A stretch of DNA of 18,715 nucleotides, from the IMG/VR virus record IMGVR_UViG_3300012117_000003, positions 1 to 18,715 of that record, one strand, 5' to 3'. Shown here piece after piece: positions 1 to 18,715 of this stretch. The DNA comes from a virus. The first letter of the stretch is position 1. Each line of letters opens with the position of its first letter. Under the pieces are notes generated by a model. It did not search any database. It was not told the DNA's origin and worked only from the letters and a program-made list of their open reading frames with translations. The translations under genes were made by a program, and so were the position numbers.

Positions 1-123
1 CAATAGCCGCCTTTGTGTTTAATCAAATCCGCAAGGCGTTGCGGCAATTAGTGGATTATTTAGGTAGCGCCATGAGAACTAACGAGCAATATGTGGCCTC
101 CCTAGCGGCTATCAAGGGCAACC
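1..123. repeat. Left copy of exact 123-bp terminal direct repeat (circular-closure overlap)
   Basis: Read base by base: caatagccgcctttgtgtttaatc...atcaagggcaacc is identical to 18593-18715. Confidence 0.95.
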
Positions 124-2657
124 TTTTAACTGCATTTCAACCAATCTACGAAATAGTCATGCCCGCCCTTAATACTTTTATGGCAGGGCTGGCGCGGGTT
201 ACGGGGTATCTTGCGGCATTCATTAGCTTTATAACCGGCAAATCGCTAAAGGCAAGTCAGGACGCAGCAGAAAGCCTATACGATCAAGTTGACGCAATGG
301 ACGCGCTCGGAAATTCCGCGAAGAAAGCGGCTGGACGGTTGGCCTCGTTCGACACGATCAATCAACTTGCGGCGCAGACTTCCGAGGATAGCAAGATCGC
401 TCCTGATTTTGATTATGACCTATCAGAAATGGAGGATTTTTTTAGCCGGTTCGATAAGATTGCAGATGCTTTTTACGGTATGGGCGAAAAGCTTTCAGAC
501 ACAATAACCAATTTCCTCAATAATATTAATTGGGATAAAATCCAAAGCAATGCCCGCAATATCGCACAAAACATTGTTGATTTTATCAACGGATTCCTTG
601 ACGATCCCGCCCTATGGATAGCAGCCGGACATACGATTGCGCAGGGATTAAATACAGCACTTATATTCCTTGATACGCTACTTGCGGGATTGCATTGGGA
701 AACCTTTGGGCGCAATTTCGGCATGATGCTAAATACCATTGTAAGTGAATTTGATTGGCGGCTTTTAGGAAAAACGATGGCCGATGGCATTAATGCTATA
801 TTTGGCTTTTTGCTTAGAGCCATTGAAACATTTAATTGGGCGAACCTGGGAAACAAGCTTGCTGATGCGCTACTTTCTTTAACCAATACCGTGAAATGGG
901 ATCACATAGCCCTCACGCTTTCAAAAGGCTTGAATGGCGTATTGCTGACACTCTATACATTCCTAACATCATATCCGTGGGGTAATCTAGGCTCTACATT
1001 GGCAAACTCTCTGAATCTAATGGTATCAACCATTAGGTGGGCCGATATAGGCGCGACAATCGCAGCGTTTTTCAATTCCGCGATTAGTTTTCTGCTTAAC
1101 GCTGTAACTGATTTTAGATGGGGTGATTTGGGCGCTGGTTTGGCCGGAGCAATAAATAAATTATTCCATGATATCAAATGGGCCGACTTGGGTAAACTGG
1201 TTTCAAATTTCTTTAAGGGCGTTCTTGATTTTCTTAGTAAAGCAGTACAAGAAACGGATTGGCGAGGAATCGGAAAAAGCATAGGTGAATTTTTAGCAAA
1301 TATTGATTGGGTTGAGATTCTAAGCAAGGCAGGAAGATTTATTGGTAATGCCTTAATCGGAATCTTGAATGGTCTATCACAAGTCATACAAACGGTTGAT
1401 TGGCAAGCTATAGGAAATGCCGCCGCCGCGTTCATAGCAAGTATTGATTGGTCTGGCCTCACTTCTGCATTGTTTGAGGGCATAGGAAGCGCTGTCGGCG
1501 CGGTTGTTCAATTATTATACGGTTTCATTGAAGATATCTGGAATAATCTAATTGATTGGTGGCATGACGTAGCCTTTGAAGATGGGAAATTTACAATTCA
1601 AGGCTTGCTTGATGGTATTTGGGAGGCAATTAAAAATATAGGCCAGTGGATTAAAGATAATATTTTTGATCCATTTATTAAAGGGTTCAAGTCTGTGTTT
1701 GGGATCGCTTCTCCGTCAACCGTCATGATGGAATTAGGCGGCTATATCATAGAGGGATTAAAGCAGGGATTGGTGGGATTGTGGGATAAGGTAAAGGACA
1801 TATTCACCAACACTATTGATAATATCAAGAAAACCTTTTCCCTTGATAACCTAAAGTCCATTGGTTCAAACGCCGTAACCGGATTAATGAATGGCCTTGA
1901 ATCTATCGGCTCCAAAGCGTCGAAATGGGGTTCCGGTATTCTTGATGATGTTAAAAATACATTGGGGATTCATTCTCCATCAACCGCTATGTTAGAGATA
2001 GGCAAGTATCTTGTACAGGGTTTGGATAACGGAATATCTAAGTCTATGGGTTCCGTAACAACGGCGTTTCAAAATTTGTGGGATGGCATTAAATCAGGAT
2101 CGAAAGTTGCGGCAGAATCAATCAATAGTGTGTGGAAGTTTTCGGGCGAACAAATTGCCAACAGTTTTCGCGCAGCAGGAAACACGATATTGGGAACCAT
2201 GACGAACATTGCAAACGGAATAATTACCGTGTTTGAAAGCGCGATAAACCGCATTATCAAAGAGGTTAATAGATTAGTTGACAATGTAAACAAGATTAAT
2301 ATTGATGGTGCCAAGCTGTCAATTCCAAAATTATCAAGTACATCTATTCCGCGCATGACAATCCCCAAGCTTGCTACCGGCGCGGTTATCCCTCCACGAC
2401 AAGAGTTTATGGCTATACTTGGAGATCAGCGCAATGGGCGCAACCTTGAGGCCCCGGAAGGGCTGATACGGCAGCTTTTACAGGAGGAAATGCGCGATAT
2501 TATGGCTGACCTTACACGTTTACTAGAACGAAACAACCAACAGATTACTATAAAATTTGAGGGTGAACTAGCACAACTGGCCCGTTTGCTACATCCCGCC
2601 ATTGAGCAGGAGCGGGGCCGGATCGGCGGCGGGATGTCCTCACGTCCGGCATATTAA
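1..2657 (+). CDS. Tail tape measure protein, remainder (the same ORF as 17635-18592)
   Basis: 880-aa track ORF; the GVG start at 15 is an artefact of the window edge. It has hydrophobic helices, a regularly spaced Trp repeat block, and two copies of the G-I-x-SPST-x-M-x-E-x-G-x-Y-hh-x-GL motif common in Firmicutes phage TMPs. TAA stop at 2655-2657. Confidence 0.85.
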   Translation, partial: IAAFVFNQIRKALRQLVDYLGSAMRTNEQYVASLAAIKGNLLTAFQPIYEIVMPALNTFMAGLARVTGYLAAFISFITGKSLKASQDAAESLYDQVDAMDALGNSAKKAAGRLASFDTINQLAAQTSEDSKIAPDFDYDLSEMEDFFSRFDKIADAFYGMGEKLSDTITNFLNNINWDKIQSNARNIAQNIVDFINGFLDDPALWIAAGHTIAQGLNTALIFLDTLLAGLHWETFGRNFGMMLNTIVSEFDWRLLGKTMADGINAIFGFLLRAIETFNWANLGNKLADALLSLTNTVKWDHIALTLSKGLNGVLLTLYTFLTSYPWGNLGSTLANSLNLMVSTIRWADIGATIAAFFNSAISFLLNAVTDFRWGDLGAGLAGAINKLFHDIKWADLGKLVSNFFKGVLDFLSKAVQETDWRGIGKSIGEFLANIDWVEILSKAGRFIGNALIGILNGLSQVIQTVDWQAIGNAAAAFIASIDWSGLTSALFEGIGSAVGAVVQLLYGFIEDIWNNLIDWWHDVAFEDGKFTIQGLLDGIWEAIKNIGQWIKDNIFDPFIKGFKSVFGIASPSTVMMELGGYIIEGLKQGLVGLWDKVKDIFTNTIDNIKKTFSLDNLKSIGSNAVTGLMNGLESIGSKASKWGSGILDDVKNTLGIHSPSTAMLEIGKYLVQGLDNGISKSMGSVTTAFQNLWDGIKSGSKVAAESINSVWKFSGEQIANSFRAAGNTILGTMTNIANGIITVFESAINRIIKEVNRLVDNVNKINIDGAKLSIPKLSSTSIPRMTIPKLATGAVIPPRQEFMAILGDQRNGRNLEAPEGLIRQLLQEEMRDIMADLTRLLERNNQQITIKFEGELAQLARLLHPAIEQERGRIGGGMSSRPAY

Positions 2658-2674
2658 GAGAAAGGATAATTTTA

Positions 2675-2887
2675 ATGATTCCTGATTTTTATGAGTATTT
2701 AGTGACCTTAGATAAGGATAGGATTTTAAGTGATTCTGTAGCAGGGGCTAGTAAATTTGTTGATATGAAAACATCACGACAAGTAGATCATAACGAATTA
2801 TTAAAAATTGCTATGTCGTCGGCGTTTGGTATGTCTATTGCACTATTACAGGCATATCATGAGTGGTTACAAGATCAGATGATATAA
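2675..2887 (+). CDS. Hypothetical 70-aa protein, low-GC insert (moron-like)
   Basis: ATG with an upstream AAAGGA. By my count about 71 of 213 bases are G+C (~33%), against ~50% in the flanking genes. A GC hairpin follows. Confidence 0.55.
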   Translation: MIPDFYEYLVTLDKDRILSDSVAGASKFVDMKTSRQVDHNELLKIAMSSAFGMSIALLQAYHEWLQDQMI

Positions 2888-2893
2888 GAAAAA

Positions 2894-2953: not shown

Positions 2954-2987
2954 CCGTAAAACCTTATCTGTCAAGGGAGGCGCAATC

Positions 2988-3770
2988 ATGAGAAATGAAG
3001 AACTGGCGATATTGGCGCAACAGGGCGATAAAAATGCAATGTTCGACCTATGGGAGGCGACCCGGCGTCTGATCTACAAGTTGCTGCAACCCTACCATAC
3101 AGTATGCCCCCGGTATGGCATGGTAATTGAGGATTTGCAACAGGAGGGATATTTCGCATTTGTCCGAGCGGTAAAGGCATACAAGCCGGAGAAAGGCATC
3201 CTATTCACTTCCTACCTTAATTACAGCGTCCAGAACGTCGCACATGAGGCTTTAGGCGGCAGAGGCAAGAAAACGCCTGACCCATTCCCGGCATCCCTTG
3301 ACGAGCCTATAAAGGGCATTGAGGATGAAAGCATATCCCTGGGCGATACCATACCGGACGAGAGCGCGGCGGCAGAATTTGAACAAGTGCAAGACGATTG
3401 GCAGCGGGAACAATTAGCCGCGACCATGCGGGAATGCCTGGGCGAATTGCCGGAGAATCGCAGGAATATCCTATATGCCCGCTATTATGAGCAGAAATCA
3501 TTAAGGGAAACAGGACAGGCGCAGGGATGCACCCCGGAGGCCGTAAGGCAGCAGGAGTACCACGCATTAAGGGCTTTACGCCACCCGCGCCATGCTGGGC
3601 GGCTGAAACCGTATTATGACGCTATGGACTTCATAAGCACAAAAGCATATAGCGGGAATAGCTTCTCAGCATTTAAGCGGCGTACATGTTCGCAACCCGA
3701 ATGGATGGTTGAAATTTTAGAGCGGATTCAGGCAAGAGAGGCTAACACAATAAACCAAATGGAGGCATGA
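2988..3770 (+). CDS. Sigma-70 family RNA polymerase sigma factor (regions 2 and 4) with C-terminal extension
   Basis: GGGAGG RBS 7 nt upstream. Region 2-like: DLQQEGYFAFVRAVKAYKPEKGILFTSYLNYSVQNV. An acidic linker follows. Region 4-like HTH: LPENRRNILYARYYEQKSLRETGQAQGCTPEAVRQQEYHALRALR. About 60 extra C-terminal residues. Confidence 0.85.
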   Translation: MRNEELAILAQQGDKNAMFDLWEATRRLIYKLLQPYHTVCPRYGMVIEDLQQEGYFAFVRAVKAYKPEKGILFTSYLNYSVQNVAHEALGGRGKKTPDPFPASLDEPIKGIEDESISLGDTIPDESAAAEFEQVQDDWQREQLAATMRECLGELPENRRNILYARYYEQKSLRETGQAQGCTPEAVRQQEYHALRALRHPRHAGRLKPYYDAMDFISTKAYSGNSFSAFKRRTCSQPEWMVEILERIQAREANTINQMEA

Positions 3771-3784
3771 ATTTACAGTGCTTG

Positions 3785-4100
3785 AAACCGAACAAAAACT
3801 GACATAAAAAAAGACAAAGTTAGGACAAAGTTAGGACGGATTATAACAAGGTTTTGATAAGGTATTCAAACATTCCTAGCACCCTACCAACGGCAGCAAT
3901 ATGGGATATGCTTCATGTTGCAGTCTCTTTATGGGCCGCGCAAAACTAGCGCAAAACTAGCGCAGAAAATCCAAGTTTTCATTTAGCACAAAGTTGGCAT
4001 AAAACTAGCACAAAAAAGCCCACCACAAAATCACCACAAATACACAACAAATCGGAGATACCAGGGGCCATAAAAGTGTGAAAAAGTGTGAGTAAAAAAA
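3785..4100. repeat. Array A of ~11-bp-phased A-tract degenerate repeats, including exact tandem 11-mers
   Basis: gacaaagttag x2 (3813-3834). gcgcaaaacta x2 plus degenerate gcgcagaaaat (3938-3970). aaaagtgtg/aaaaagtgtg (4072-4090). A-tracts at 3942, 3953, 3966, 3990, 4001, 4012, 4027, 4038, 4048. The + strand is A/C-rich and G/T-poor. No ORF. Confidence 0.7.
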
Positions 4101-4114
4101 GAGGGGGATTGTTC

Positions 4115-4372
4115 ATGAATAAGAACTTGATACCCTTTGATGCTATGTCCTCAGAGCGACACCGGGAATTGTCTGCCAGAGGCGGCAGGGCCAGCGGTGA
4201 GGCCCGCAGGAATAAAAAGGCACTCAGGGAGCAGCTACAGGCGAAAATGGAGCAGTACGCGCAGGCCGAGGGCTTTATAGACGATATAGGCGAGTTTAAT
4301 AGATGGAAAAAGCGCAGGGCTAAAGCGAGAGCCAAGAGAGAGCGAACCACGGGGGGAATCATAAAAAAGTAA
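4115..4372 (+). CDS. Small highly basic hypothetical protein (85 aa)
   Basis: ATG at 4115 with a GAGGGGG RBS 7 nt upstream, preferred over the GTG at 4088. Contains RELSARGGRASGEARRNKK and a C-terminal KKRRAKARAKRER tail, which suggests nucleic-acid binding. Confidence 0.6.
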   Translation: MNKNLIPFDAMSSERHRELSARGGRASGEARRNKKALREQLQAKMEQYAQAEGFIDDIGEFNRWKKRRAKARAKRERTTGGIIKK

Positions 4373-4520
4373 CCTTACATCATGCGGCTTTTATCCGGCA
4401 GTTTTATTACATACTGAAATACACCGCAAACCCGCATAACAAAAGTATTTGTAGCGGGCGAATGTTGCAGGGTATTGATATTTTTACCTATTGATTTAGG
4501 CAAACGGGAGGCGGGGCTAT

Positions 4521-5144
4521 ATGGGCGGCTATAATAGTGGAGGCCGGAACCGGACGCACAGCTACACGAACCAATGCAAGCAGCTTGACAGCTTCTATTT
4601 TGGCAAGGGTATTCCGCTCATGGAGGAAAAGGAGATAAAAAGCCTAGATCATACCATAAGCTGGAAAGATGGCGGCTCTATTGCGGTTGTCCTGCATCCC
4701 GGCAAGCTGGATGTGGGTTATGCCGCAGGAGCCGAACGAAAGGAAATCCACGATACTTTTTATTTTGATTCCGTCCCGAACAATTACGGCGGCGCGGATC
4801 GCTATTACTTTGAGTGTCCCGAATGTGGGCGGCGTTGCCGGTTCCTGTATCTGCACAAGCAGCATTTTAAATGTCGGAAGTGCGCCGACCTAAACTATTC
4901 CAGGCAGCGTTTGAACAACACAAATGAGGATATAGCAACCTACAAAATGCGGAAACTTCTGCATGATGGCTTTAAGGTAAAGGGGGCCTTGTCACCAATG
5001 GACGCCAGTACATACAGGCCGGATCGCCCAAAGGGTATGCACCAAAAAACATACATGCGGTTACGGATGCAGCTATTACGGGCGCAGCAGGATTATATCA
5101 GTTACTTGTGGGCGTTCGTGGGGAGATTATACGCAAGACAATAG
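4521..5144 (+). CDS. Zinc-ribbon hypothetical protein (207 aa)
   Basis: GGGAGG RBS 9 nt upstream. N-terminal GGYNSGGRNR. CPEC-x14-CRKC four-cysteine ribbon (YYFECPECGRRCRFLYLHKQHFKCRKCADLNYSRQ). Confidence 0.75.
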   Translation: MGGYNSGGRNRTHSYTNQCKQLDSFYFGKGIPLMEEKEIKSLDHTISWKDGGSIAVVLHPGKLDVGYAAGAERKEIHDTFYFDSVPNNYGGADRYYFECPECGRRCRFLYLHKQHFKCRKCADLNYSRQRLNNTNEDIATYKMRKLLHDGFKVKGALSPMDASTYRPDRPKGMHQKTYMRLRMQLLRAQQDYISYLWAFVGRLYARQ

Positions 5145-5149: not shown

Positions 5150-5352
5150 CTAAAAGTTGCGGAAAGTTGCACATAAAAAAGGGATAAAACTGCCGGAAAA
5201 TGCCACCAAAAAAAAGATGAAAGCGCCACAACGCACCACAAAAAAAGAACGAGTAGTTTATTTTAGTTGACCCAAAAAAAGATCGGCAGAAATCGCCACC
5301 AAAAAAAGGCGTTGCCGCTCTGAAACGAAACAAAAAGCTACACAAAAAAACT
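5150..5352. repeat. Array B of ~11-bp-phased A-tract degenerate repeats
   Basis: A-tracts start at 5152, 5163, 5175, 5186, 5197, 5208, 5220, 5240, 5274, 5290, 5301, 5323, 5332 and 5344, at spacings of mostly 11-12 bp or multiples. Shares the AAAGTTG word with array A. No ORF. Confidence 0.7.
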
Positions 5353-5399
5353 ATGAGCATTAAATAAGGGCCAATGCGCATACAAGCCCCTAGCAAGCC

Positions 5400-5978: not shown

Positions 5979-6260
5979 TTACCATTCGCGCAAATGCGCA
6001 CCTACATTGTCCTTATATATGCCTAATAGAATCTTAACCAGATCAGGTATAGCAAACAAATACATTACAAGGAGAGACGGTAAAACAACGGGGTCTACGA
6101 ATGAACTGCCGACACACACAAGCCCGATAATTAAGAATATCAGGCCGGATTTGATTTTACCAACATAGAGCCGGTGCAATCCCAAGAAGCCACCAAGCAA
6201 GCAAAGAATCAATGCGGTCTTTCGCTTCTTATCACTGGTGATGGTTCCATAGTTTGCCAT
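5979..6260 (-). CDS. TM2 domain-containing small membrane protein (93 aa)
   Basis: GGGGGTG RBS. KKRKTALILCLLGGFLGLHRLYVGKIKSGLIFLI is the characteristic TM2-domain pattern. Two predicted TM helices. Confidence 0.8.
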   Translation of the reverse strand: MANYGTITSDKKRKTALILCLLGGFLGLHRLYVGKIKSGLIFLIIGLVCVGSSFVDPVVLPSLLVMYLFAIPDLVKILLGIYKDNVGAHLREW

Positions 6261-6321: not shown

Positions 6322-6537
6322 TTATTTGTCGGTATCCTCCATCGGCTTGCCCGTGGCCTCCTGTACGGCCTTACTTACTGCCGAGCGTATAAAACCGTTG
6401 GTGCTTTGCCCGGTGGTTGTAGCAGCTTCTACAATGCGTTCCTTTGCGCCTTTACGGGCTTTGAATGTGATGTATTGGAAATTCTCTTTGTCGTGCTTGT
6501 CGCTGGCCTTGCGTTGAGCATCACTTACTGGTGACAT
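6322..6537 (-). CDS. Ribbon-helix-helix (Arc/CopG-like) DNA-binding protein (71 aa)
   Basis: AAGGAGG RBS 7 nt upstream. FQYITFKARKGAKERIVEAA...GQSTNGFIRSAVSKAV fits a beta-strand-helix-helix layout. Confidence 0.7.
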   Translation of the reverse strand: MSPVSDAQRKASDKHDKENFQYITFKARKGAKERIVEAATTTGQSTNGFIRSAVSKAVQEATGKPMEDTDK

Positions 6538-6860: not shown

Positions 6861-7166
6861 ATGATGTTAGAAGAAGCGCAAGCGCGGTTAAAAAAGGAGA
6901 AGATCACCACGCAAGATCAGATTTGGGCGATAAATTCCTTATATATCCTGCTTGACCTCCACAAAGACGATTTCTGCAAAATCATTGATGCAGTAGGGCT
7001 TGAAACCCTGATAAAGAAGCAAAAGCATTATGACCGCTTAGACCAGGCCGAAAAGGAATTAGCGGCAAAGGAGCGATACCTACAGGCAAAAGCACGGTTG
7101 GAAGAACTTGAAGCGGAAAAGGCCAGCCTTGAACAGATCGTAAGCGGATATAAGCAACCCGCCTGA
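6861..7166 (+). CDS. Hypothetical coiled-coil protein (101 aa)
   Basis: AAAGGAG RBS 8 nt upstream. C-terminal Glu/Lys/Ala heptad-like region. Confidence 0.7.
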   Translation: MMLEEAQARLKKEKITTQDQIWAINSLYILLDLHKDDFCKIIDAVGLETLIKKQKHYDRLDQAEKELAAKERYLQAKARLEELEAEKASLEQIVSGYKQPA

Positions 7167-7225
7167 CGAAAGCCGAACCGGGCAACGCAGCCCGTAATAT
7201 ACAAATTTGAAAGGAGCATACCACC

Positions 7226-7507
7226 ATGACAGATCGCACATTGAAAGCCAAAGTTTCCAAGCTGCAAGAACTCCAGGCAGAGATTGACTTCCTTACTGGT
7301 CAGGCCGAAACCATCAAAGACCATATCAAGGAGGAAATGACCGCCCGCGAGACTGACGAACTCAAAGCCGGTGACGCTGTAATCCGGTGGAAGTACATCC
7401 GGCAGAACAAATTCGACAGCAAGGCATTTAAAGCCGCACACGCCAGCCTGTACAGCAAGTACACGCAGGAGCAGGAAACCCGGAGATTTACCCTTGTCAG
7501 CGCATAG
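7226..7507 (+). CDS. Hypothetical protein (93 aa) with N-terminal coiled coil
   Basis: AAGGAG RBS 9 nt upstream. No family assigned with confidence. Confidence 0.7.
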   Translation: MTDRTLKAKVSKLQELQAEIDFLTGQAETIKDHIKEEMTARETDELKAGDAVIRWKYIRQNKFDSKAFKAAHASLYSKYTQEQETRRFTLVSA

Positions 7508-7641
7508 GAAAAGCCCCATACATCACCGGCCCGGAAAGCAAGGTTGATGTAAGAGGCCCCACAACAGGCAGATTGCCCGCTACCTATAGTATAAGCGGCG
7601 GCGGGCTTTCTGTCAAGATTAAGACAGGAGGCTATTTTTTA

Positions 7642-8121
7642 ATGGGAAAAGCGGCAGACCGTACCCGGCACATATTACAGGCTTATGGATATACGCCCCG
7701 GACGCTTGCGATTGATCTTGATGTGTCACCCAAAGTGGCGCGGCGCATACTTCAAGGCGAGAATGACCTTTACTTGAGCGACTATTATTTACTCCAAGAT
7801 TGCATATTAGGCGTTGATCTGAACTTTCTGTTTTGCCAATTCAAGCCCGGTGAAATGAAAGCCGAACGGGAGCGCCGGGAGGCTGAACGGGCCGAAAAGC
7901 AGCGCAAGGATGCCGAGCAAAAAGCGAAATGGGAAGCGGAGGCGCAGGAGCGCCGGGAAAGATGGCGCAATATGACACCGCAAGAGAAATGCGCCGATAC
8001 TGCAAGGGTAATTATTCCTCTGCTTGACGACTGCGAACGGCGCGGATTTACCATTACTGATGTAGCCCGCGAAATTATCAAGCAAGCGGAGGCTAGACGA
8101 ACGGAGGGCGGGGCGGCATGA
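7642..8121 (+). CDS. Hypothetical protein with possible N-terminal HTH and Glu/Arg-rich central helix (159 aa)
   Basis: ATG at 7642 with an AGGAGG RBS (7626-7631), preferred over the upstream TTG at 7573. RTLAIDLDVSPKVARRILQGEN is HTH-like. Also contains ERERREAERAEKQRKDAEQKAKWEAEAQERRER. Confidence 0.6.
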   Translation: MGKAADRTRHILQAYGYTPRTLAIDLDVSPKVARRILQGENDLYLSDYYLLQDCILGVDLNFLFCQFKPGEMKAERERREAERAEKQRKDAEQKAKWEAEAQERRERWRNMTPQEKCADTARVIIPLLDDCERRGFTITDVAREIIKQAEARRTEGGAA

Positions 8122-8849: not shown

Positions 8850-8913
8850 AGCAACGAGGGGCCGGGGCTGATAAATAGCCCCTCCTCCCGCTATCAGAAA
8901 AGGAGAATGAACC

Positions 8914-9993: not shown

Positions 9994-10033
9994 GTGAGGT
10001 TTCTAATTGGATTGTGAGGTTTTTGTGTGGTTT
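9994..10033 (+). repeat. attP arm-type repeats, right arm: GTGAGGTTT x2 plus GTGTGGTTT
   Basis: Copies at 9994-10002, 10014-10022 and 10025-10033 (the last one degenerate). Same orientation as the left-arm copies. The last two overlap the integrase 3' end. Confidence 0.6.
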
Positions 10034-11415: not shown

Positions 11416-12133
11416 TGTTTCGCGCCTCCTTTTCAAGTGGTGGCAATTTACTATGCGGCAAGTTGTAAGTTTTTTTCATGTCGCGAAGTGCGTCAGAAAT
11501 TTCGCCCAATAGAATCCTTTCCATTTGAGAAGTCGAGATAACCGTATCTGATACATTGTGGCTTTTTGATTCGTGCTTGCGTATACCTCCTACAGCATTC
11601 ATTATATAACTTTTGGAATTTTCATTCATAAGGCAAAAGTAATTTGAAATCATATCTATAATTGAAACTTTACTTAGATCATTTGTGTGGTAGGTGATAT
11701 TTTCAAGTAAATAATTTACAACATCAATCCTTGAAACCCAGCCAACTTTTCCAGCCTTATCTAATAACCGGTGTAGTTTTAAGGTGCTTATTGCCTCACT
11801 ACTTAACCCGGTTTTTTCGATTATGGCCTTATCCTCAATATCGGTAGTTGGATCTTCAACTCCACCGATTAAATAATCAGCAGATACCCCAAAGCACTTT
11901 GTCATTTTTGCAAGGGTCTTTACATCTGGTACGTTATCACCAGTCTCATACAGCCCTATGGTGGATTTGGTAACGCCTAATAATTTAGCCAATGCTGATT
12001 GTGATATATCTAATTTTTGTCTTTGTTCCCGGAGCCTTGACGGGAATACAGCGTTTTTATTATCTTCTGATGAATACTTAATCTTTGCCTTTTCTGCCTC
12101 TTTTCTGCTTAACGGAAATATTAACTTTGCCAT
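11387..12133 (-). CDS. XRE/CI-like repressor (248 aa) with a non-peptidase C-terminal domain
   Basis: GGGAGG RBS. HTH: LREQRQKLDISQSALAKLLGVTKSTIGLYETGDNVPDVKTLAKMTKCFGVSADYLIG. I could not find an S24 Ser/Lys autocleavage motif in the ~150-aa C-terminal part. Confidence 0.8.
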   Translation of the reverse strand: MAKLIFPLSRKEAEKAKIKYSSEDNKNAVFPSRLREQRQKLDISQSALAKLLGVTKSTIGLYETGDNVPDVKTLAKMTKCFGVSADYLIGGVEDPTTDIEDKAIIEKTGLSSEAISTLKLHRLLDKAGKVGWVSRIDVVNYLLENITYHTNDLSKVSIIDMISNYFCLMNENSKSYIMNAVGGIRKHESKSHNVSDTVISTSQMERILLGEISDALRDMKKTYNLPHSKLPPLEKEARNNGNVKKEDA

Positions 12134-12152: not shown

Positions 12153-12207
12153 CTGAAATACTTGTTGTGTCTAAAAAATGCAGTCTGAAATATTGACCTA
12201 CTGAAAT
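12153..12207. promoter_or_regulatory. Three direct CTGAAAT repeats in the repressor/cro intergenic region (candidate operators)
   Basis: Copies at 12153-12159, 12185-12191 and 12201-12207. The last two flank the -35 of the rightward promoter. Confidence 0.4.
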
Positions 12208-12221
12208 TATGGGTGTATACT
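12193..12221 (+). promoter_or_regulatory. Rightward early promoter (TTGACC-17-TATACT)
   Basis: -35 at 12193-12198, 17-bp spacer, -10 at 12216-12221, upstream of the cro-like/replication operon. Confidence 0.55.
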
Positions 12222-12235
12222 TATTATGATGACAA
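12207..12235 (-). promoter_or_regulatory. Candidate leftward repressor promoter (TTGTCA-17-CATAAT on -), interleaved with the rightward promoter
   Basis: -35 at 12235-12230 and -10 at 12212-12207, read on the reverse complement. Confidence 0.4.
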
Positions 12236-12285: not shown

Positions 12286-12465
12286 ATGAGCGCAAATACT
12301 GATATTCGCAGAGAAGCGAAAGCCAATGGCGTGCCGCTCTGGAGAATCGCTGAATTTTTAAAAATTAGCGAACCCACAATGTCGCGTCGAATGCGTAAAG
12401 AAATGCCGGACGAAGAAAAAAAACAAATGCGTGAGATTATTTCACAGCTTGCCCAGGAGGTATGA
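12286..12465 (+). CDS. Cro-like small HTH protein (59 aa)
   Basis: ATG at 12286 downstream of an AAGGAGG. The track start at 12226 lies upstream of the predicted transcription start. HTH: GVPLWRIAEFLKISEPTMSRRMRKE. Confidence 0.65.
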   Translation: MSANTDIRREAKANGVPLWRIAEFLKISEPTMSRRMRKEMPDEEKKQMREIISQLAQEV

Positions 12466-12468: not shown

Positions 12469-12705
12469 ATGGCCGCAAGGTTAATGAATACCGTGGATGA
12501 AACATTTACAAGGGCGCAAGCGGAAAATATCGGCGTATCTAAGAACTTTATACGGCAATCTGTCCGCAATGGGGCATTGCCTTGTGTGCGGGCCGGGACA
12601 AAATATCTTATAAATTGGAACGCCTTTATGTCCTATCTGGAAAATCCCGCGCCAGCGGTGCAACCGGAGCCGAGTATTGGCGGTATTCGCCGGGTAGGGG
12701 GTTGA
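12469..12705 (+). CDS. xis: Excisionase-family (MerR-like HTH) DNA-binding protein (78 aa)
   Basis: AGGAGG RBS 8 nt upstream. FTRAQAENIGVSKNFIRQSVRNGALPCVRAGTKYLINWNAFMSYL matches the excisionase-family HTH pattern. Confidence 0.6.
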   Translation: MAARLMNTVDETFTRAQAENIGVSKNFIRQSVRNGALPCVRAGTKYLINWNAFMSYLENPAPAVQPEPSIGGIRRVGG

Positions 12706-12707: not shown

Positions 12708-13004
12708 ATGTCAAATTGTAATCTACTTGATTTACTTTCCGAGGGGCGCGAAAATGCGAAAACAGCGCGGGAATTGATGTTGCCTTTAGGTTTCGATAAT
12801 GTCAGGGAGGTTGCCGCTGAGATCGCACGGCTACGAAAGGCAGGGACGATTATTTGTTCTGTGACCGATTCCGACGTAAAAGGCTATTACCTCCCCTCAT
12901 GCCGAGACGATATTATACGCTTCGTCCGCAAAACTGAATCCAGAATCCGAGAAACTGAAAAGATGTTGCAGTCCGCCAGAGATTTTCTACAAGGCGAGGT
13001 GTAA
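12708..13004 (+). CDS. Hypothetical protein, probable winged-helix (98 aa)
   Basis: ATG at 12708; the track start at 12582 overlaps xis. NAKTARELMLPLGFDNVREVAAEIARLRKAGTIICS. Confidence 0.6.
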   Translation: MSNCNLLDLLSEGRENAKTARELMLPLGFDNVREVAAEIARLRKAGTIICSVTDSDVKGYYLPSCRDDIIRFVRKTESRIRETEKMLQSARDFLQGEV

Positions 13005-13007
13005 TAA

Positions 13008-13841
13008 ATGGCAGAACGAAGAATGTTTGCAAAATCAGTCATTGAAAGTGACGCATTTTTAGATATGCCAATATCTGCCCGCCTCTTATACTTCGATTTG
13101 GGTATGCGTGGGGATGATGATGGTTTTGTGGATAGTCCAAAACGCATTATGCGTATCACCGGAGCATCCGAGGACGATTTGAAATTGCTTATAGCCAAAC
13201 AATTCCTCATACCGTTTGAAATCGGCGTTGTGGTGGTTCGTCACTGGAAGATGCACAATTACATACGGAATGATCGGTATAAGCCCACGCAATATCAGTT
13301 TGAAAAAACCGTATTAACAGAGGACACAAACGGGATTTATTCATTGCGGTTGACGGATGGTATACCAAACGACAACCAAGTGGCTACCGCTTGCCTCCCG
13401 GATGGTTGCATAGGGGAGGTTAATAGAGGTAAGGAGAATATAGGAGAGAGGGAGGAAGAACACGCCGCTATCGCGTCGGCCCCTGCCCCCTATGATGAAA
13501 TTGTAAACCTGTACAATTCTATATGCGGTTCTTTCCCGAAAGTCAAGCGGCTATCCAATGACCGGCGAAAAGCGATAAAGGCGAGATTGAATGATTACGG
13601 CTTAGACGATTTCCGGCAACTTTTCACCATAGCGGAATCTACTCCGTTTCTAAAGGGCAAAAACCCCCGGAATTGGGCGGCTACCTTTGATTGGTTGATT
13701 TCTGATAAAAATATGGCAAAAGTGCTTGATGGAAATTATGGTGACAATTCCCCCGCTACCAGCAGCGCCCACGGCGCAGACGGAACCACACACCCGGACG
13801 GTGGCGTATGGATGAACGGAAAGCAAGTGTTGGGGGTATGA
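13008..13841 (+). CDS. Phage replisome organizer (N-terminal organizer domain plus conserved phage C-terminal domain)
   Basis: MAERRMFAKSVIESDAFLDMPISARLLYFDLGMRGDDDGFV is the typical replisome-organizer N-terminus. C-terminus: YNSICGSFPKVKRLSNDRRKAIKARL...NWAATFDWLISDKNMAKVLDGNY. Confidence 0.85.
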   Translation: MAERRMFAKSVIESDAFLDMPISARLLYFDLGMRGDDDGFVDSPKRIMRITGASEDDLKLLIAKQFLIPFEIGVVVVRHWKMHNYIRNDRYKPTQYQFEKTVLTEDTNGIYSLRLTDGIPNDNQVATACLPDGCIGEVNRGKENIGEREEEHAAIASAPAPYDEIVNLYNSICGSFPKVKRLSNDRRKAIKARLNDYGLDDFRQLFTIAESTPFLKGKNPRNWAATFDWLISDKNMAKVLDGNYGDNSPATSSAHGADGTTHPDGGVWMNGKQVLGV

Positions 13842-13842
13842 T

Positions 13843-15591
13843 ATGGAACCTTTAGAATTTGCGCGGCTATACCTCCAACCATATAAAGAAAAAGGCGCGG
13901 AGATCGTACCGCAGTATTGCCCGTTCTGCCACGGCGGGAGCCACCGCGATAAATATTCCTTTGCGCTGAATATCGAAAAAAAGACATATAACTGCAAGCG
14001 CGGGAGTTGCGGAGCGCAGGGGCATTTTACGCAGCTATGCCGGGAATTTGGGGTACAGACTATGGAATATACGCCGCCCAAAAAGACTTATAAAAAACCA
14101 GAGAAGCAGCCAAAACCGTTGCATGATGCGGCTATGAAATATATGTTTTTGCGGGGGATCAGCCAAGAAACCGCCGAGGTATACCGAATAGGAACAGATG
14201 AAAATGGAAATTTAATGTTCCCATACTTTGCCGACACCGGGGAACACGTTTTTAATAAATACCGTTATCCGCGCAAGCTGGAAAAGGGAGATCGTAAGGC
14301 GTGGCGCGAAGCTGATACAATGCCGGCATTGTTCGGTATGAATCTTTGCGATACGTCGAAGCCGTTGACAATCTTTGAGGGAGAATTTGACGCATTAGCG
14401 GGGCATGAGGCCGGAATACCAAATTGTGTTAGCGTTCCGTCCGGGGCCGAAGATTTCACATGGTTAGATACATGCTGGGAGTTTGTGCAGCGGTTTGAAA
14501 ACATTTACTTGTTCGGTGACAATGACGCGCCCGGAGTGCAAATGATACGGCGGCTGGCGGCAAAATTGAGCGATAAAAAAATATTTGTCGTGGCGCATAA
14601 ATGCAAGGACGCGAACGAATTATTATACCGCGAGGGGCCGGAGGTGGTAAGGGCGGCATGGGAGGCCGCAAAGGAAATACCCGTTGCTGGACTTCTCAAC
14701 CTTGCGGAAGTGGCCCCGCTTGACGTTGAAAATATGGAAAGCGTCAATACGAGTATTTCCCCTCTTAATAAGATGATCGGCGGCTTTTATTATGGTGATG
14801 TAACCACATGGACGGGCAAGCGTGGCGAGGGGAAAAGTACCCTGTTATCCCTGCTTATGCTGGATGCAATCGAGGACGGGAAAAAAGTATGCGCTTATTC
14901 CGGCGAACTTCGGGCAGATCGTTTTCAGTATTGGACGGATTTACAGGCGGCAGGAAAAGATTCCATACAAGAATATTATGACTACGCCAAAGACAGACAG
15001 ACGTATTATGTTCCGAAAGATACCCGGAGTAAAATCCATGAATGGTATAACGGCAAATACTGGCTCTATGACAACGCTATATCCCAAACGGACGAAGAAA
15101 TAACCATATTGAAAGCCTTTGAAATGGCGGCGCGGCGGTATGATTGCCGGGTATTTCTGGTTGATAATCTTATGACCGCCGATTATGGGAAAATGAGTGA
15201 CAGCGATTTTTACCGACAACAATCAAGATTTGTCGGGCAGCTTGTATCATTTGCAAATAAGCACAACGTCCATGTTCACCTTGTCGCGCACCCGCGAAAA
15301 ACGAGGGGGCCGCTGGAAAATGACGATATAAGCGGCAGCGGAGATATTACTAACCGAGTAGCAAATGTTATTACCTTGAGCAAGAATACAAAAGCAGAAA
15401 TAGCCTTTGATTTATCGCTGGAAGTAACAAAGAACCGTTGGGAGGGTAATTGTGGGACTGTTGGACTGAATTACTGCAAGATTAGCCATAGGATATATGT
15501 CCCGAATGTTGGCGATATTGTCCGCTATGGCTGGACAGATCAGCCCGACCGCTTCATTGAAGTTGACCCCTCCGGGGATATGCCGTGGTAG
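13843..15591 (+). CDS. Bifunctional primase-helicase (zinc finger + TOPRIM + DnaB/gp4-like helicase), 582 aa
   Basis: CPFC...CKRGSC zinc finger. TOPRIM residues: IFEGEFDALA and LFGDNDAPG. Walker A: TGKRGEGKST. Walker B: VFLVDNLM. Also HVHLVAHPRK. Confidence 0.9.
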   Translation: MEPLEFARLYLQPYKEKGAEIVPQYCPFCHGGSHRDKYSFALNIEKKTYNCKRGSCGAQGHFTQLCREFGVQTMEYTPPKKTYKKPEKQPKPLHDAAMKYMFLRGISQETAEVYRIGTDENGNLMFPYFADTGEHVFNKYRYPRKLEKGDRKAWREADTMPALFGMNLCDTSKPLTIFEGEFDALAGHEAGIPNCVSVPSGAEDFTWLDTCWEFVQRFENIYLFGDNDAPGVQMIRRLAAKLSDKKIFVVAHKCKDANELLYREGPEVVRAAWEAAKEIPVAGLLNLAEVAPLDVENMESVNTSISPLNKMIGGFYYGDVTTWTGKRGEGKSTLLSLLMLDAIEDGKKVCAYSGELRADRFQYWTDLQAAGKDSIQEYYDYAKDRQTYYVPKDTRSKIHEWYNGKYWLYDNAISQTDEEITILKAFEMAARRYDCRVFLVDNLMTADYGKMSDSDFYRQQSRFVGQLVSFANKHNVHVHLVAHPRKTRGPLENDDISGSGDITNRVANVITLSKNTKAEIAFDLSLEVTKNRWEGNCGTVGLNYCKISHRIYVPNVGDIVRYGWTDQPDRFIEVDPSGDMPW

Positions 15592-15607
15592 AAAGGAGGG
15601 TAAACGG

Positions 15608-15847
15608 ATGAACAGGCAAACAGTATCGGCGGTAGAGGGGTTTGTAATGTTTATAGAATCCCTGCGAGAACCGCAGCCGCGCCACGGACGCAAAGAAATA
15701 ACCGCCTTACTCGATTACACAAAGCGGCAGACAAAGAAGAATTGGCATGTTTATTCTGATTGCAAGCGCCGCCTTGATGACCTGAATATCACATGCAAGC
15801 AATATCAAAGGGCGCACAGGTCAATTATTAATATTTTGCGAGTTTGA
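15608..15847 (+). CDS. Hypothetical protein (79 aa)
   Basis: ATG at 15608 after a GAAAGGAGGG RBS; the track start at 15497 overlaps the helicase gene. Confidence 0.55.
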   Translation: MNRQTVSAVEGFVMFIESLREPQPRHGRKEITALLDYTKRQTKKNWHVYSDCKRRLDDLNITCKQYQRAHRSIINILRV

Positions 15848-15860
15848 AAGGAGAACGCAT

Positions 15861-16088
15861 TTGACATTCACGCAATGGCTCAAACGCCACATAAAGGATG
15901 ATACCCCCGTGGGGGATTTCGCGAGGGACGCGCAGAGGGCAAAGGATTTTCCGCAGAATGGGACAATGGGAACCTATTCAGCATACCTCACCAATCGCGG
16001 AGCCTGTCGGGAGGCACGGGCCGCATTCCGTGAAGCGTGGCCTCAGTATGAAAAAGAAAAAGCACCCGCCGGCAATGCCCGTCAGTGA
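15861..16088 (+). CDS. YozE (SAM-like) family protein (75 aa)
   Basis: TTG start 7 nt after AAAGGAG. TFTQWLKRH...VGDFARDAQRAKDFPQNGT...YSAYL...AFREAWPQYE parallels the YozE pattern (FY.YL...D.FP...SYL...FDEAW.QYE). Confidence 0.7.
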   Translation: MTFTQWLKRHIKDDTPVGDFARDAQRAKDFPQNGTMGTYSAYLTNRGACREARAAFREAWPQYEKEKAPAGNARQ

Positions 16089-16178
16089 GTGCCGCAGGGA
16101 ACGCGCCCCGCCTATCCAATGTCAGTATACCACAATGGGGCCGCTCCTGCAATCCAAACAATACAGGAGGGTTATTCC

Positions 16179-16433
16179 ATGACAACAGATGATGTTATTC
16201 AGATCGAAAGAAGCCCGGATTTTACCACCATAGCGCACGAAGTAAGCGCCCACATGAGCGCGTTGCCGTTAACTAATGAGCAGAACAACCGGCTTGTGGA
16301 ACTCGTCATAAAGCAAATAAACGAGGCCGAAACCACCGCCTTTAGACAGGGGTTTGATATGGGCGTGGAGCTGGGCCGGTACTTTGCCGAGAACCCGGAG
16401 GACGCGCCGCCGGTTGTGGGGTTGCTGCAATGA
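16179..16433 (+). CDS. Hypothetical protein (84 aa)
   Basis: ATG at 16179 with an AGGAGG RBS 8 nt upstream; the track start at 16089 is rejected. Confidence 0.55.
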   Translation: MTTDDVIQIERSPDFTTIAHEVSAHMSALPLTNEQNNRLVELVIKQINEAETTAFRQGFDMGVELGRYFAENPEDAPPVVGLLQ

Positions 16434-16915
16434 GCGATTACATACTTGCAATAGACCCCGGCAATGTCCAAAGTGCCTATACTCTGCTTGATGCTGAATC
16501 CCTAAAACCTATCACGGCGCAGATCGTCCCCAACGACAAGTTGCTACAGATCGTAACGGGCAACCCGGACAAAGATACCACAAATTTTGTAATCGAAATG
16601 GTTGCATCTTACGGTATGGCGGTAGGCGAAACAGTTTTTGAGACGGTATTCTGGATAGGCCGGTTTTACGCCGCCGCCGAACAGTACCGCGCCCGCTATC
16701 GTATCAAACGCATGGACGTTAAAATGCACTTGTGCCATAGCAGCAGGGCCAAAGATGCGAATGTTCGACAATCCCTAATTGATCGTTTCGGTGAAGTTGG
16801 CACGAAGAAAGCGCCGGGGTGGTTCTATGGATTCCGGGCCGATATGTGGGCCGCTTATGCCGTGGGCGTGACCTATGCGGATAGCGTGTGCATACCGGCG
16901 GCGCGGCCTCCTTAA
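16430..16915 (+). CDS. RuvC-like Holliday junction resolvase (161 aa)
   Basis: ATGA overlap with the preceding gene. ILAIDPGNVQSAY (first acidic motif), FVIEMVASYG (Glu motif), and late acidic residues (DANV, DMWAAYA), as in Gram-positive phage RuvC-type resolvases. Confidence 0.65.
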   Translation: MSDYILAIDPGNVQSAYTLLDAESLKPITAQIVPNDKLLQIVTGNPDKDTTNFVIEMVASYGMAVGETVFETVFWIGRFYAAAEQYRARYRIKRMDVKMHLCHSSRAKDANVRQSLIDRFGEVGTKKAPGWFYGFRADMWAAYAVGVTYADSVCIPAARPP

Positions 16916-16958
16916 CCATTGATAGATTTATCAATCGTAAACGGAAAGGAGAAAGCCC

Positions 16959-17267
16959 ATGACTGATAAAATATTTAAGCACAAGGATTTTTCAGCCTAT
17001 ATTGATCCCTGTAATGGCCCTACCCGAAAGCGCATTAACCGGCTTTTGAGTAAATCAATGCAAAAACTACGCCGAACGCAAAGCGAAAAAACAGATGAAG
17101 AAAGATATAAAAAATCCGCTATTATCACTTGTGACTTCTTCGACAATCTGTTTGGCAAAGGTTCCGCTTACAAGATTTTAGGCGATTCCCCTGCTTCAGA
17201 TGATTTTTCAAATGCTATATATGCTTTCGTTGACTATATTAATTCATTCAATAAAAGAGGTGGATAA
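16959..17267 (+). CDS. Hypothetical protein (102 aa)
   Basis: AAAGGAG RBS. No recognisable motif. Confidence 0.6.
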   Translation: MTDKIFKHKDFSAYIDPCNGPTRKRINRLLSKSMQKLRRTQSEKTDEERYKKSAIITCDFFDNLFGKGSAYKILGDSPASDDFSNAIYAFVDYINSFNKRGG

Positions 17268-17270
17268 TTT

Positions 17271-17468
17271 ATGAGCGCGGAAAACGATATTGACCGGAAG
17301 CGCCAAAAAATAAAATGTCCTCATTGCGGACAGGAGCAATATACCAATACTTTCACACCGGCCTCTGTCTGCCTGGGATTGTGGGCGAAGTGCAAAAACC
17401 CCCATTGCCGCAAGGAATATGAAATAAAGGTTTTCCAGGGTGAGCAATACGGAAAGGGGGGAATCTGA
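17271..17468 (+). CDS. Small zinc-ribbon protein (65 aa)
   Basis: GAGGTGG RBS. CPHC...CKNPHC four-cysteine arrangement. Confidence 0.6.
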   Translation: MSAENDIDRKRQKIKCPHCGQEQYTNTFTPASVCLGLWAKCKNPHCRKEYEIKVFQGEQYGKGGI

Positions 17469-17557: not shown

Positions 17558-17563
17558 AAACTT

Positions 17564-17614
17564 TTGTGCCTGTGTGCCATTCAGAGAAAAATAATCTATT
17601 GTGCCGTGTGCCAT
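17564..17614 (+). repeat. Direct repeat TTGTGCC(T)GTGTGCCAT x2 immediately upstream of the tape measure gene
   Basis: Copies at 17564-17580 and 17599-17614, with starts 35 bp apart, in the only intergenic gap (77 bp) of the long rightward operon. Confidence 0.5.
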
Positions 17615-17634
17615 AAACCGAAAGTTGGTGAATT

Positions 17635-18715
17635 ATGGCAGAAGGTCGCGTAGAAATTTCAACTGAATTGGACAACACAGGCATAAAAAAAGGCATTTCT
17701 AATCTTCCTAAAGTTTTCAATCAGTTTAAATCCGCAGTAAGAGATATTGCGGGCGCGTTGGACACTTCCTTTGGCCCCAAACAGCAAAAGCAGATTGACA
17801 CATTAACACAGCGGCTTGCCCGACAGCAAGAAGCGGCCCAAAAAGCGGCCCGCGCCGTTGACGATATCCGGCGGCAATATGAAGCAGTAGCGGGCATGGA
17901 AACCACTCCTGCATCACTCCGCAAGATGGAAACCGAACTTGCCAGAGTGCAAAAGGAAATCCAGAAAGCCGAAAAAGAATATGAAAATCTGGAATCGCAA
18001 TTACTTAAAGTGCAAGAAAGAGCGGCATTTGAAACAATGGCCTCCGGTGTAGCTTCACCCAAAAATGCTACGGAAATGGAGCGGCTTACTCGCGAATTGG
18101 ACGCTGCCGGACAAAAGCTGGGCGGGATGGACGATAGGGCGCAGCAGTTACAATCATCCATTGAAAGAATCAGGCTTAGTCCAGAGGGATCACAAGAAGC
18201 GCAAAACCTAGCAAGCAAGCTTCAAGGCGCGGAAGAAAAAGCAGCACGGCTTGCAAATGAGGCAGATTTTACCGCAAGTCGGCTGGAGGGATTAAAGGAC
18301 GGGCCGGAGCAAGGAGAAACCGCATTTCAAAAAATGCGCAACGCTGTATCACAAGTCGGCGGCGCTGTAGGTTCTATAGTAAGCAAAGGTGTATCAGCTT
18401 TTGCAAGGCTCGCAAATGTAGTATCACAGGTTGGAACCGGCATTTCCTCTATTGCCCAAAAAGGCGTTTCCGGCATGGGTAAACTATTTGGATCAATCAA
18501 AAAGGTTATAACCGGATTAAAAAATACCACCAAGCACACAAACAAGGCCGGTGGCGCTCTTGAAAAATTCGGTAAGCGAATATTAAAACTTGCAATAGCC
18601 GCCTTTGTGTTTAATCAAATCCGCAAGGCGTTGCGGCAATTAGTGGATTATTTAGGTAGCGCCATGAGAACTAACGAGCAATATGTGGCCTCCCTAGCGG
18701 CTATCAAGGGCAACC
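17635..18715 (+). CDS. Tail tape measure protein, N-terminal part (continues across the junction into 1-2657; total 1,204 aa)
   Basis: ATG at 17635 follows an in-frame TGA (17629-17631) and a GGTGA. There is no stop before the window end, so the ORF is missing from the supplied track. The phase of 18593-18715 equals that of 1-123 (position 3 starts a codon). 958 + 2657 nt = 1,205 codons including the stop. The N-terminal ~250 aa is an Ala/Glu/Gln/Lys-rich coiled coil, followed by the hydrophobic segment LKLAIAAFVFNQI, as in siphophage TMPs. Confidence 0.85.
   Translation, partial: MAEGRVEISTELDNTGIKKGISNLPKVFNQFKSAVRDIAGALDTSFGPKQQKQIDTLTQRLARQQEAAQKAARAVDDIRRQYEAVAGMETTPASLRKMETELARVQKEIQKAEKEYENLESQLLKVQERAAFETMASGVASPKNATEMERLTRELDAAGQKLGGMDDRAQQLQSSIERIRLSPEGSQEAQNLASKLQGAEEKAARLANEADFTASRLEGLKDGPEQGETAFQKMRNAVSQVGGAVGSIVSKGVSAFARLANVVSQVGTGISSIAQKGVSGMGKLFGSIKKVITGLKNTTKHTNKAGGALEKFGKRILKLAIAAFVFNQIRKALRQLVDYLGSAMRTNEQYVASLAAIKGN
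18593..18715. repeat. Right copy of exact 123-bp terminal direct repeat
   Basis: Identical to 1-123; the window ends at the end of the repeat. Confidence 0.95.

Follow-up and report, generated by a model that had tools for sequence, protein, structure and literature searches.

To our knowledge, phage satellites were long thought to alter only capsids and packaging, and remodelling of a tail by a satellite tape measure protein (TMP) was demonstrated only in 2026, in one Vibrio system. Here we describe an element contained in the IMG/VR virus record IMGVR_UViG_3300012117_000003, of which positions 1 to 18,715 were analysed (the window, 18,715 nt). Its predicted genes show it to be competent for integration and replication, unable to build a virion, and in possession of an intact TMP. 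We put at about one half the probability that it is a non-autonomous PICI-like satellite, from an undescribed lineage of (probably) anaerobic Firmicutes, that builds part of the tail itself.

The Vibrio system is PLE11 of Vibrio cholerae (Nature 2026, PMC12987554), which has its own TMP, a chaperone and a baseplate hub protein and no tail tube or sheath genes. Its TMP enters the satellite virions, whose chimeric tails are 10 nm shorter than those of ICP1, and by assembling such tails PLE11 escapes its own anti-TMP defence, Rta (PMC12987554). The same authors point to putative tmp genes elsewhere, namely in further PLE-like elements and some of the cf-PICIs (PMC12987554, Extended Data Fig. 10). 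A second case is that of the EPIPs of Mycolicibacterium aichiense, siphophage satellites that have a TMP and whose tails are longer than those of the helper (bioRxiv 10.64898/2025.12.02.691453). EPIPs are 11 kb long and carry a serine integrase, TerS, a head-tail adaptor, a stopper, a scaffold and a major capsid protein; the list of their conserved genes includes no replication module (same preprint).

The element resembles PLE11 in that the latter is a satellite without tube or sheath genes and with its own TMP. It differs in that PLE11 also has a chaperone, a hub protein and Rta, none of which was found here, and in that the PLE11 helper is a lytic myovirus and its host Gram-negative. The two backbones are unrelated. 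They showed no similarity in sequence and are of different types in integrase and in replication, the element having a tyrosine recombinase. With the EPIPs only the TMP is common, since the element lacks the head genes listed above and has its own replicon, a sigma factor and a tyrosine integrase.

A likeness of backbone is found with the PICIs of Gram-positive bacteria and the JavanS satellites (PMC6813308), which like the element have a terminal integrase next to the att site, a divergent repressor/cro pair and a replication module, and have no capsid or lysis genes. JavanS satellites and the element also share two protein families, that of a 207-aa protein (g207) and the TerS-like family phrog_2412, with protein identities of only about 30%. 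The two JavanS elements that were read are 11.6 and 13.7 kb long and have neither TMP nor annotated sigma factor, whereas the element, at 18.6 kb, has both. PICIs have no virion or lysis genes, from which the element departs through its TMP alone, and its 18,592 bp fall outside the PICI size of ~10-15 kb, while relatives without TMP measure 7.3-10.5 kb. P4-like satellites are characterised by an alpha-type primase and by capsid and late-gene control proteins of the Sid/Psu/Delta type, and no such PHROG or Pfam matches were obtained in the element. cf-PICIs carry their own capsid, portal, protease and connector genes, for which the element has no match and no open reading frame (ORF) large enough. 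They are named for forming their own capsids (PMC12987554; bioRxiv 10.64898/2025.12.02.691453) and rely on helper tails; some are reported to have putative tmp genes (PMC12987554).

A satellite with its own tape measure is therefore not new as an idea (Nature 2026; EPIP preprint 2025). An earlier model-made reading of the window, done without database searches (the sequence-only reading), had started from the premise that known satellites have no TMP; PLE11, some cf-PICIs (PMC12987554) and the EPIPs (bioRxiv 10.64898/2025.12.02.691453) make that premise out of date. What is new here is a sigma-bearing PICI-like backbone that shares the g207 and TerS-like families with streptococcal satellites, a TMP with no recognisable capsid, chaperone or hub gene adjoining it, and a hint of repeated capture of different TMP families.

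The closed circle and its gene content

Bases 1-123 of the window are identical to bases 18593-18715, which defines a circle of 18,592 bp. Two further assemblies contain the same circle opened elsewhere. The ENA contig ERZ27241861 k141_76642 (MEGAHIT-style; our locus L001) is 18,733 bp long with a 141-bp overlap, begins at window position 3962 and is 100% identical; the TMP gene lies unbroken in its middle (13674-17288). The Logan contig SRR6448741_638 is 18,610 bp long with an 18-bp overlap, begins at window position 13341 inside the DnaD-like gene and is again 100% identical. Since three assemblies with three unrelated breakpoints give the same circle, the junction within the TMP gene is not the artefact of one assembler. 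The closed unit of ~18.6 kb proposed by the sequence-only reading is thus borne out, and the chimeric or collapsed assembly that it had named as a possible refutation is very improbable (below). Near-identity DNA searches of phage and plasmid collections returned no match to the element.

The features on which the argument depends are the following.

17635-18715, plus strand: 5′ part of the TMP gene, which resumes at base 124 after the 123-bp overlap.
1-2657, plus strand: 3′ part of the TMP gene, with the Trp-periodic repeats and a conserved C-terminus; bases 1-123 duplicate 18593-18715.
2988-3770, plus strand: sigma-70 family factor, regions 2 and 4 (Pfam Sigma70_r2/r4; phrog_351, E=2e-32).
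4115-4372, plus strand: TerS-like basic protein of 85 aa, or 94 aa from the GTG at 4088 (phrog_2412, E=4e-9).
4521-5144, plus strand: g207, a 207-aa Zn-ribbon protein (CPxC...CxxC).
9750-10033, no strand assigned: attP, with a core at ~9843-9893 (minus strand) resembling the 3′ part of a tRNA-Pro, and arm repeats.
10003-11436, minus strand: tyrosine integrase (Pfam Phage_integrase, E=3e-27; HTH_26/HTH_3 at residues 153-208; phrog_1).
11387-12133, minus strand: CI-like HTH_3 repressor, divergent from the cro side (Pfam HTH_3, E=4e-15; Phage_CI_repr).
12286-12465, plus strand: cro-like gene (phrog_17740).
12469-12705, plus strand: excisionase (TIGR01764, 32.1 bits for a cut-off of 28.8).
12708-15591, plus strand: replication module, opening with a conserved 98-aa phrog_2113 protein; the module matches phrog_5708 (E=1e-64) and phrog_239 (E=6e-96).
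13008-13841, plus strand: DnaD-like organizer.
13843-15591, plus strand: primase-helicase (Toprim and AAA_25).
16430-16915, plus strand: RuvC-like Holliday junction resolvase (phrog_1770, E=5e-18).

About 30 ORFs were compared with Pfam and PHROGs, and subsets of 10 ORFs each with NCBIfam and PADLOC. Profile matches confirmed all the assignments made from the letters alone (integrase, CI-like repressor, cro-like and xis-like genes, organizer, primase-helicase, resolvase, sigma factor and TMP). In these same searches no ORF matched a holin, an endolysin or any head or packaging protein such as large terminase, portal, capsid or protease, and none matched a tail tube or baseplate. When the complete ORF sets of eight related loci, phages or elements, served as tblastn queries, no head or tail gene fragment was detected in the window besides the TMP, and neither a pseudogene of the large terminase (TerL) nor any other tail remnant was seen there. 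The earlier description of the TMP as the only recognisable virion gene accordingly holds for portal, TerL, capsid, tube and lysis genes; it has to be amended for the TerS-like N-terminal motif encoded at 4115-4372.

An autonomous temperate siphophage has a large terminase, a portal, a capsid, a tail tube and a lysis cassette, and the element is without all of these. About half of its ORFs have no assigned function, and one could imagine an autonomous virus of very small size in which the proteins for capsid and packaging have diverged beyond recognition. Size speaks strongly against this, as had been argued from the sequence: the ORFs of at least 200 aa are of 1204, 582, 477, 277, 260, 248 and 207 aa, and no unassigned one exceeds 207 aa. 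The largest unassigned one, g207, was considered as a hidden capsid or terminase and discarded on the strength of its predicted structure, a confident AlphaFold model (AF2, pLDDT 79) which had no significant Foldseek match in PDB or BFVD, capsid-like or terminase-like ones included. Moreover, a TMP of this length implies a long tail, for which the tube, terminator and tip proteins that would be needed are absent. We give this possibility almost no credence.

A different way of explaining the missing genes would be an assembly artefact, by which a larger phage genome was collapsed or mis-joined and its head, tail and lysis genes lost. The junction of the window does sit in a repeat-bearing gene, that of the TMP, and every assembly may share reads (ERZ27241861, SRR6448741). 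Still, three assemblers agree on the 18,592-bp circle with breaks inside the TMP gene, at 3962 and inside the DnaD-like gene; the TMP repeats have no similarity at the DNA level; two separate deletions would be required, one 5′ and one 3′ of the TMP; and the TMP-sigma junction was seen independently in another contig, L011 (below). Such an artefact is therefore very improbable.

The tape measure protein and its surroundings

The TMP ORF (17635..18592 joined to 1..2657) encodes 1,204 aa and occupies 19.4% of the element. Its match to the TMP family phrog_1535 (E=2e-80) spans residues 27-1195, and upwards of 15 further TMP PHROGs match as well. It is 51-53% identical to the phage TMP P0002 and 40% identical, over 97% of the length, to P0003. 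The central part (aa 497-740, nt ~530-1260 of the window) is made of five full periods of 47 residues in which Trp spacing alternates between 27 and 20; similar Trp patterns are present in the homologs, and the repeats are more regular here than in the closest phage homologs. A recent expansion of these repeats was ruled out: there are no tandem repeats at the DNA level, and the repeats are old. The full-length family match, the Trp periodicity, the uninterrupted ORF and the homologs in siphophage tail modules all uphold the earlier statement that the TMP is intact, and point to its derivation from a phage. Decay of the TMP among related copies, also envisaged then as a refutation, was not seen in the four relatives that have one (L011, L012, L188, L198), their TMP ORFs being intact over all visible codons.

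The gene appears in an unusual context. The order tail tube, chaperone, TMP, distal tail protein that is canonical in phages is not found in the element. Upstream of the TMP are the resolvase gene and two small genes, and downstream a short ORF and the sigma gene:

16959-17267, plus strand: DUF6673 helical protein (Pfam DUF6673, 24.9 bits).
Between the DUF6673 gene and the TMP gene, plus strand (two-gene span 16959-17468): 65-aa Zn-ribbon protein.
2675-2887, plus strand: hypothetical 70-aa ORF directly 3′ of the TMP gene (weak phrog_8353 match only).

The 70-aa ORF occupies the slot where a phage would carry its distal tail protein. The DUF6673 protein was considered as a chaperone candidate, by a PDB sequence search, an exhaustive HMMER search and a structural model. 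Of the 1.8 billion representatives covered by HMMER, about one was a convincing homolog. The AF2 model (single-sequence) is a helical bundle with a pLDDT of 72 and no Foldseek match. No similarity was seen between the small genes upstream of the TMP and those that precede sigma in the related island L094.

All close homologs of the TMP, in contrast, belong to siphophage tail modules of the usual kind, where they are placed between a Phage_Gp15 chaperone gene and the distal tail genes. In the temperate siphophages L003/L107, L005/L106, L009, L010 and L244, the TMP is 29-53% identical to that of the element, with the same domain order and Trp repeats, and lies within full head-tail modules; L009 in addition shares the TerS N-terminal motif with the element. 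Of the 80 loci that a scan of IMG/VR with the TMP alignment gave, none has a backbone gene in common with the element, apart from a weak and generic similarity of integrases; seven short contigs among them were inspected and resemble tail modules of the usual kind. Nothing was obtained from IMG/VR with g207 or with the TMP by itself, and the primase-helicase gave three unrelated phages.

The G+C content at third codon positions is 0.42 for the TMP gene and 0.32 for the DUF6673 gene, compared to 0.51-0.59 for the sigma, g207, RuvC and primase-helicase genes. As far as composition can tell, this is consistent with capture of the TMP gene from a phage. Tail length follows the TMP at ~0.15 nm per residue. 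By this rule 1,204 aa predict a tail of ~181 nm, and the nearest phage homologs, of 1,020 and 1,336 aa, tails of ~153 and ~200 nm, respectively. A helper co-resident in the same sample was sought and not found; the TMP homologs looked up are from other samples.

Relatives of the element and the satellite reading

Queries with the sigma factor, with g207 and with the organizer brought up many related loci. Their common backbone is made of an integrase with a helix-turn-helix (HTH) insert, a repressor, cro, xis, the phrog_2113 protein and sigma, together with a replicon that varies and, in many cases, g207. The sigma factor is 25-47% identical in about 50 metagenomic loci. The simplest layout is that of L094 (5350-12687), a 7.3-kb island at a tRNA-Arg gene in an NCBI metagenome-assembled genome, with a 68-bp direct repeat at its borders and with only int, repressor, cro, xis, the phrog_2113 protein, Phage_rep_org_N, sigma and g207 as genes. 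A second, truncated sigma-like gene lies outside this island, at 18579-19046. Other islands are of ~8.9-10.5 kb and are bordered by repeats of 21-45 bp. None of these small relatives has large ORFs or structural genes, and this is also true of a distant relative that is itself circular: L242 (MT836843.1), an 8,514-bp GenBank scaffold from human faeces (Mexico) with a 124-bp terminal overlap, hence an 8.4-kb circle, which carries int, rep, xis, sigma and an abortive-infection-like gene (phrog_2158). To judge from metadata, by which record and study were linked, MT836843.1 probably comes from a DNase-treated virome of virus-like particles; if so, the element family is encapsidated.

The g207 family ties this backbone to known satellites. 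In tblastn, g207 matched 105 of 50,697 phage records, all from Streptococcus; the 15 matches listed are all records of 10-15 kb, 14 of them named 'Streptococcus satellite phage JavanS'. Residues CPxC...CxxC are invariant across the alignment, and a motif RPKGMHQKTY is conserved. In both JavanS records that were read, the gene is downstream of the replication module; in the relatives it always adjoins the sigma gene, the two being paired in L094 and L098. A scan of genomes with the g207 alignment yielded three distant matches only (Ponticaulis, Butyrivibrio, Acinetobacter) and neither an integrated copy of the element nor a host. These distant members make the family wider than Firmicute satellites.

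The TerS-like protein matches phrog_2412 over its N-terminal ~45 residues only. Genes of this family are directly upstream of TerL in L011, in Streptococcus phage Javan488 and in L009, the phage whose TMP is related to that of the element, and are also present in annotated Streptococcus satellite prophages. Given how short the similarity is, a small-terminase-like role of the 85-aa protein in DNA recognition or packaging is no more than plausible.

These relatives match PICI-like satellites in that they are small, lack virion genes and have an integrase next to a tRNA gene, a genetic switch, varied replicons and a cargo of defence or toxin genes. That the element is a satellite and not a phage, as proposed from its sequence, gains support from the closed circle without large virion or lysis genes, from the presence of g207 in Streptococcus satellites and from that of the backbone in small islands and circles.

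Four contigs with backbone genes also have a TMP. L011 (=L186; 1-6693) has the order TMP, sigma, TerS-like, TerL (411 aa), two small ORFs, head-tail connector (Minor_capsid_2). Its sigma factor is 90% identical and the C-terminus of its TMP 51% identical to those of the element, and there is no portal or capsid gene between TerL and the connector or after TerL. L011 appears to be a differently reduced relative that retained the large terminase. At the nucleotide level, an identity of 88% is confined to the sigma gene and the region upstream and falls to 76% in the final ~270 bp of the TMP gene; the match is broken across most of the 70-aa ORF (2675-2887). L012, integrated at a tRNA-Thr gene, has an integrase (38% identical), cro, DnaD (66%), DnaC, a TerS-like and a connector-like gene and a TMP (31%), which begins only 3.7 kb after the replication genes. 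In L188, sigma is followed by a 129-aa tail protein and then by a 651-aa TMP of phrog_8462, and in L198 by a few small head-related genes, by TerS and by a TMP (at least 996 aa) of phrog_13339/28. As far as these incomplete contigs show, their TMPs represent different families, and in no case does a portal, capsid or tube gene precede the TMP.

These data could be explained by a widespread, undescribed clade of sigma-encoding PICI-like satellites of anaerobic Gram-positive bacteria (gut, digester, sediment) which captured at least three TMP families independently and no capsid genes. We propose this clade tentatively and would rather not count on it yet. If it is real, replacement of the helper tape measure would be a general satellite strategy reaching the siphophages of Firmicutes, and a satellite-encoded sigma factor a means of driving late genes.

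We also considered that the element is a defective prophage or recombinant island, and that its TMP is a passenger left by illegitimate or homologous recombination with a co-resident siphophage, still undecayed and without a role in transfer. Several observations fit: the relatives L094, L098, L191, L193, L196, L211 and L242 manage without TMP, the composition of the gene differs from that of the backbone, no chaperone or tip genes accompany it, and the element is a mosaic, as seen from the identity to L011, 88% over sigma and its upstream region and 76% at the end of the TMP gene. On the other hand, a 3.6-kb ORF is free of stops and frameshifts, its borders are clean, with no fragments of neighbouring tail genes, and the TMP-sigma junction is the same in L011 even though the TMPs are only 51% identical. 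Three different TMP families are present in backbone relatives, and it is hard to credit that precisely a TMP hitch-hiked by chance. We regard a mere passenger as unlikely, while giving it real weight.

Returning to a satellite that builds part of its tail, the course of events, in which excision, replication and packaging would depend on a helper as in PICIs, may be sketched as follows. The element would integrate at a tRNA-Pro gene. Upon infection by, or induction of, a helper siphophage, it would be excised by its integrase and excisionase and replicated by its own primase-helicase. The sigma factor would then turn on late genes of the element and possibly of the helper as well; it has the place of late activators in related phages and precedes TerS-TerL in L011, and is likely a late-gene activator. 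The TerS-like protein may steer the helper terminase to the DNA of the element. Finally, the TMP of the element would replace that of the helper on the helper's tail tube, with its chaperone and tip proteins, and give chimeric tails of ~180 nm. We infer this incorporation into helper-built tails by analogy with PLE11 and ICP1. A possible selective reason would be escape from a block directed at the helper TMP, be it an anti-TMP factor such as Rta or superinfection exclusion of the Ltp type; alternatively, a matched ejection apparatus might be the advantage.

The TMP could also act in another manner, either against the helper, by poisoning its tail assembly, or for entry past an exclusion system that targets TMPs (e.g. 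Ltp), with no bearing on tail length. Helper assembly is often hit by satellites, and tail assembly is a known target (PMC11364771; Rta, PMC12987554). The C-terminal 200 residues are the most divergent part of the protein, at 35% identity to P0002 and 51% to L011. A g207-family relative, L101, has a Lipoprotein_Ltp gene. Yet such a role is pure conjecture, profile and PADLOC scans revealed no anti-TMP factor or Ltp gene in the window, and it overlaps with incorporation into tails and does not exclude it. We think it quite unlikely as the actual function.

In L101 (4154-5659), the Lipoprotein_Ltp gene adjoins a g207 homolog that is 58% identical. We take Lipoprotein_Ltp to be a superinfection-exclusion family reported to block TMP-dependent DNA entry. 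Its position beside g207 is notable since another g207-bearing element has a TMP, and is suggestive.

Several points weigh against a satellite that builds part of its tail. The element exceeds the typical size of PICIs. The window and the ENA and Logan assemblies possibly derive from one read set (ERZ27241861, SRR6448741) and are not three independent samples. Even the nearest TMPs of phages share only 40-53% identity with that of the element and were found in other samples, and no tail assembly chaperone was recognised among the ORFs of the element, either by profiles or by the structure search with DUF6673. The TerS-like similarity is only ~45 residues long. The TMP is missing from most backbone relatives, among them the seven cited above, and is therefore dispensable for the lineage, while for L011, L012, L188 and L198 capsid genes could lie off-contig.

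The element and its relatives nevertheless suggest that the strategy known from Vibrio exists in siphophage systems of Gram-positive bacteria, with a sigma factor and a conserved Zn-ribbon protein as hallmark. They provide a concrete test case, a closed 18.6-kb circle with a predicted tail of ~181 nm, a tRNA-Pro attP and a set of markers (HTH-insert integrase, sigma, g207) by which the family can be found and TMP captures counted.

Attachment site, switch and accessory genes

Read on the minus strand, the attP core gives the acceptor end of a tRNA-Pro together with its anticodon and T arms. Arm-type repeats (T/C)GTG(A/T)GGTTT, all in one orientation, flank it at 9750 and 9761 on one side and at 9993, 10013 and 10024 on the other; five copies compare to 0.93 expected, and in none of 200 shuffles were there five. 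ARAGORN detected no complete tRNA, and Rfam gave nothing at gathering thresholds and only chance-level matches around attP. In the integrase, a Cro/C1-type HTH (residues 153-208) is inserted between the N-terminal SAM-like and the catalytic domains. The integrases of the relatives are 33-47% identical and adjoin tRNA genes, and an integrase with such an insert may be a useful marker of the element family. Integrases of the same length are encoded in L094 (5541-6935), L098 (5659-7047), L188 (4353-5741) and L242 (3495-4892); a Pfam HTH match is also found in those of L094 and L098, the precomputed cases.

Divergent promoter-like sites are located at 12193-12235, between repressor and cro, and both the cro-like gene and the excisionase gene are kept in the relatives. 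In L098, the position of the repressor is occupied by a 491-aa DUF6076 protein, and a PemK-type toxin, an HTH antitoxin and a HIRAN-domain protein (2984-4457) form a cargo between g207 and the integrase.

The stretch between g207 and attP contains the following.

5175-5360, no strand assigned: six A6-A8 tracts, mostly of the form CCACCAAAAAAA, 25-45 bp apart, within an 835-bp non-coding stretch 3′ of g207.
5979-6260, minus strand: TM2-domain membrane protein (PF05154 match, called in L001).
6322-6537, minus strand: 71-aa protein (gene call; also in L209 and L211).
6861-9676, plus strand: accessory block of ~10 small ORFs (101, 93, 159, 76, 62, 66, 40, 98 and 150 aa).

The A-tract cluster could be bent DNA belonging to an origin or to a pac/cos site; L094, L098 and L011 have no conserved counterpart of it. 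In the accessory block, Pfam, PHROGs and PADLOC recognised no virion or known defence function, PADLOC giving no defence system there. A strong terminator follows the block at 9679-9708. A small YozE_SAM-like protein is encoded within the replication block, at 15861-16088. Finally, the 93-aa protein of the accessory block and its 150/171-aa protein are common to the relatives L095, L094 and L209.

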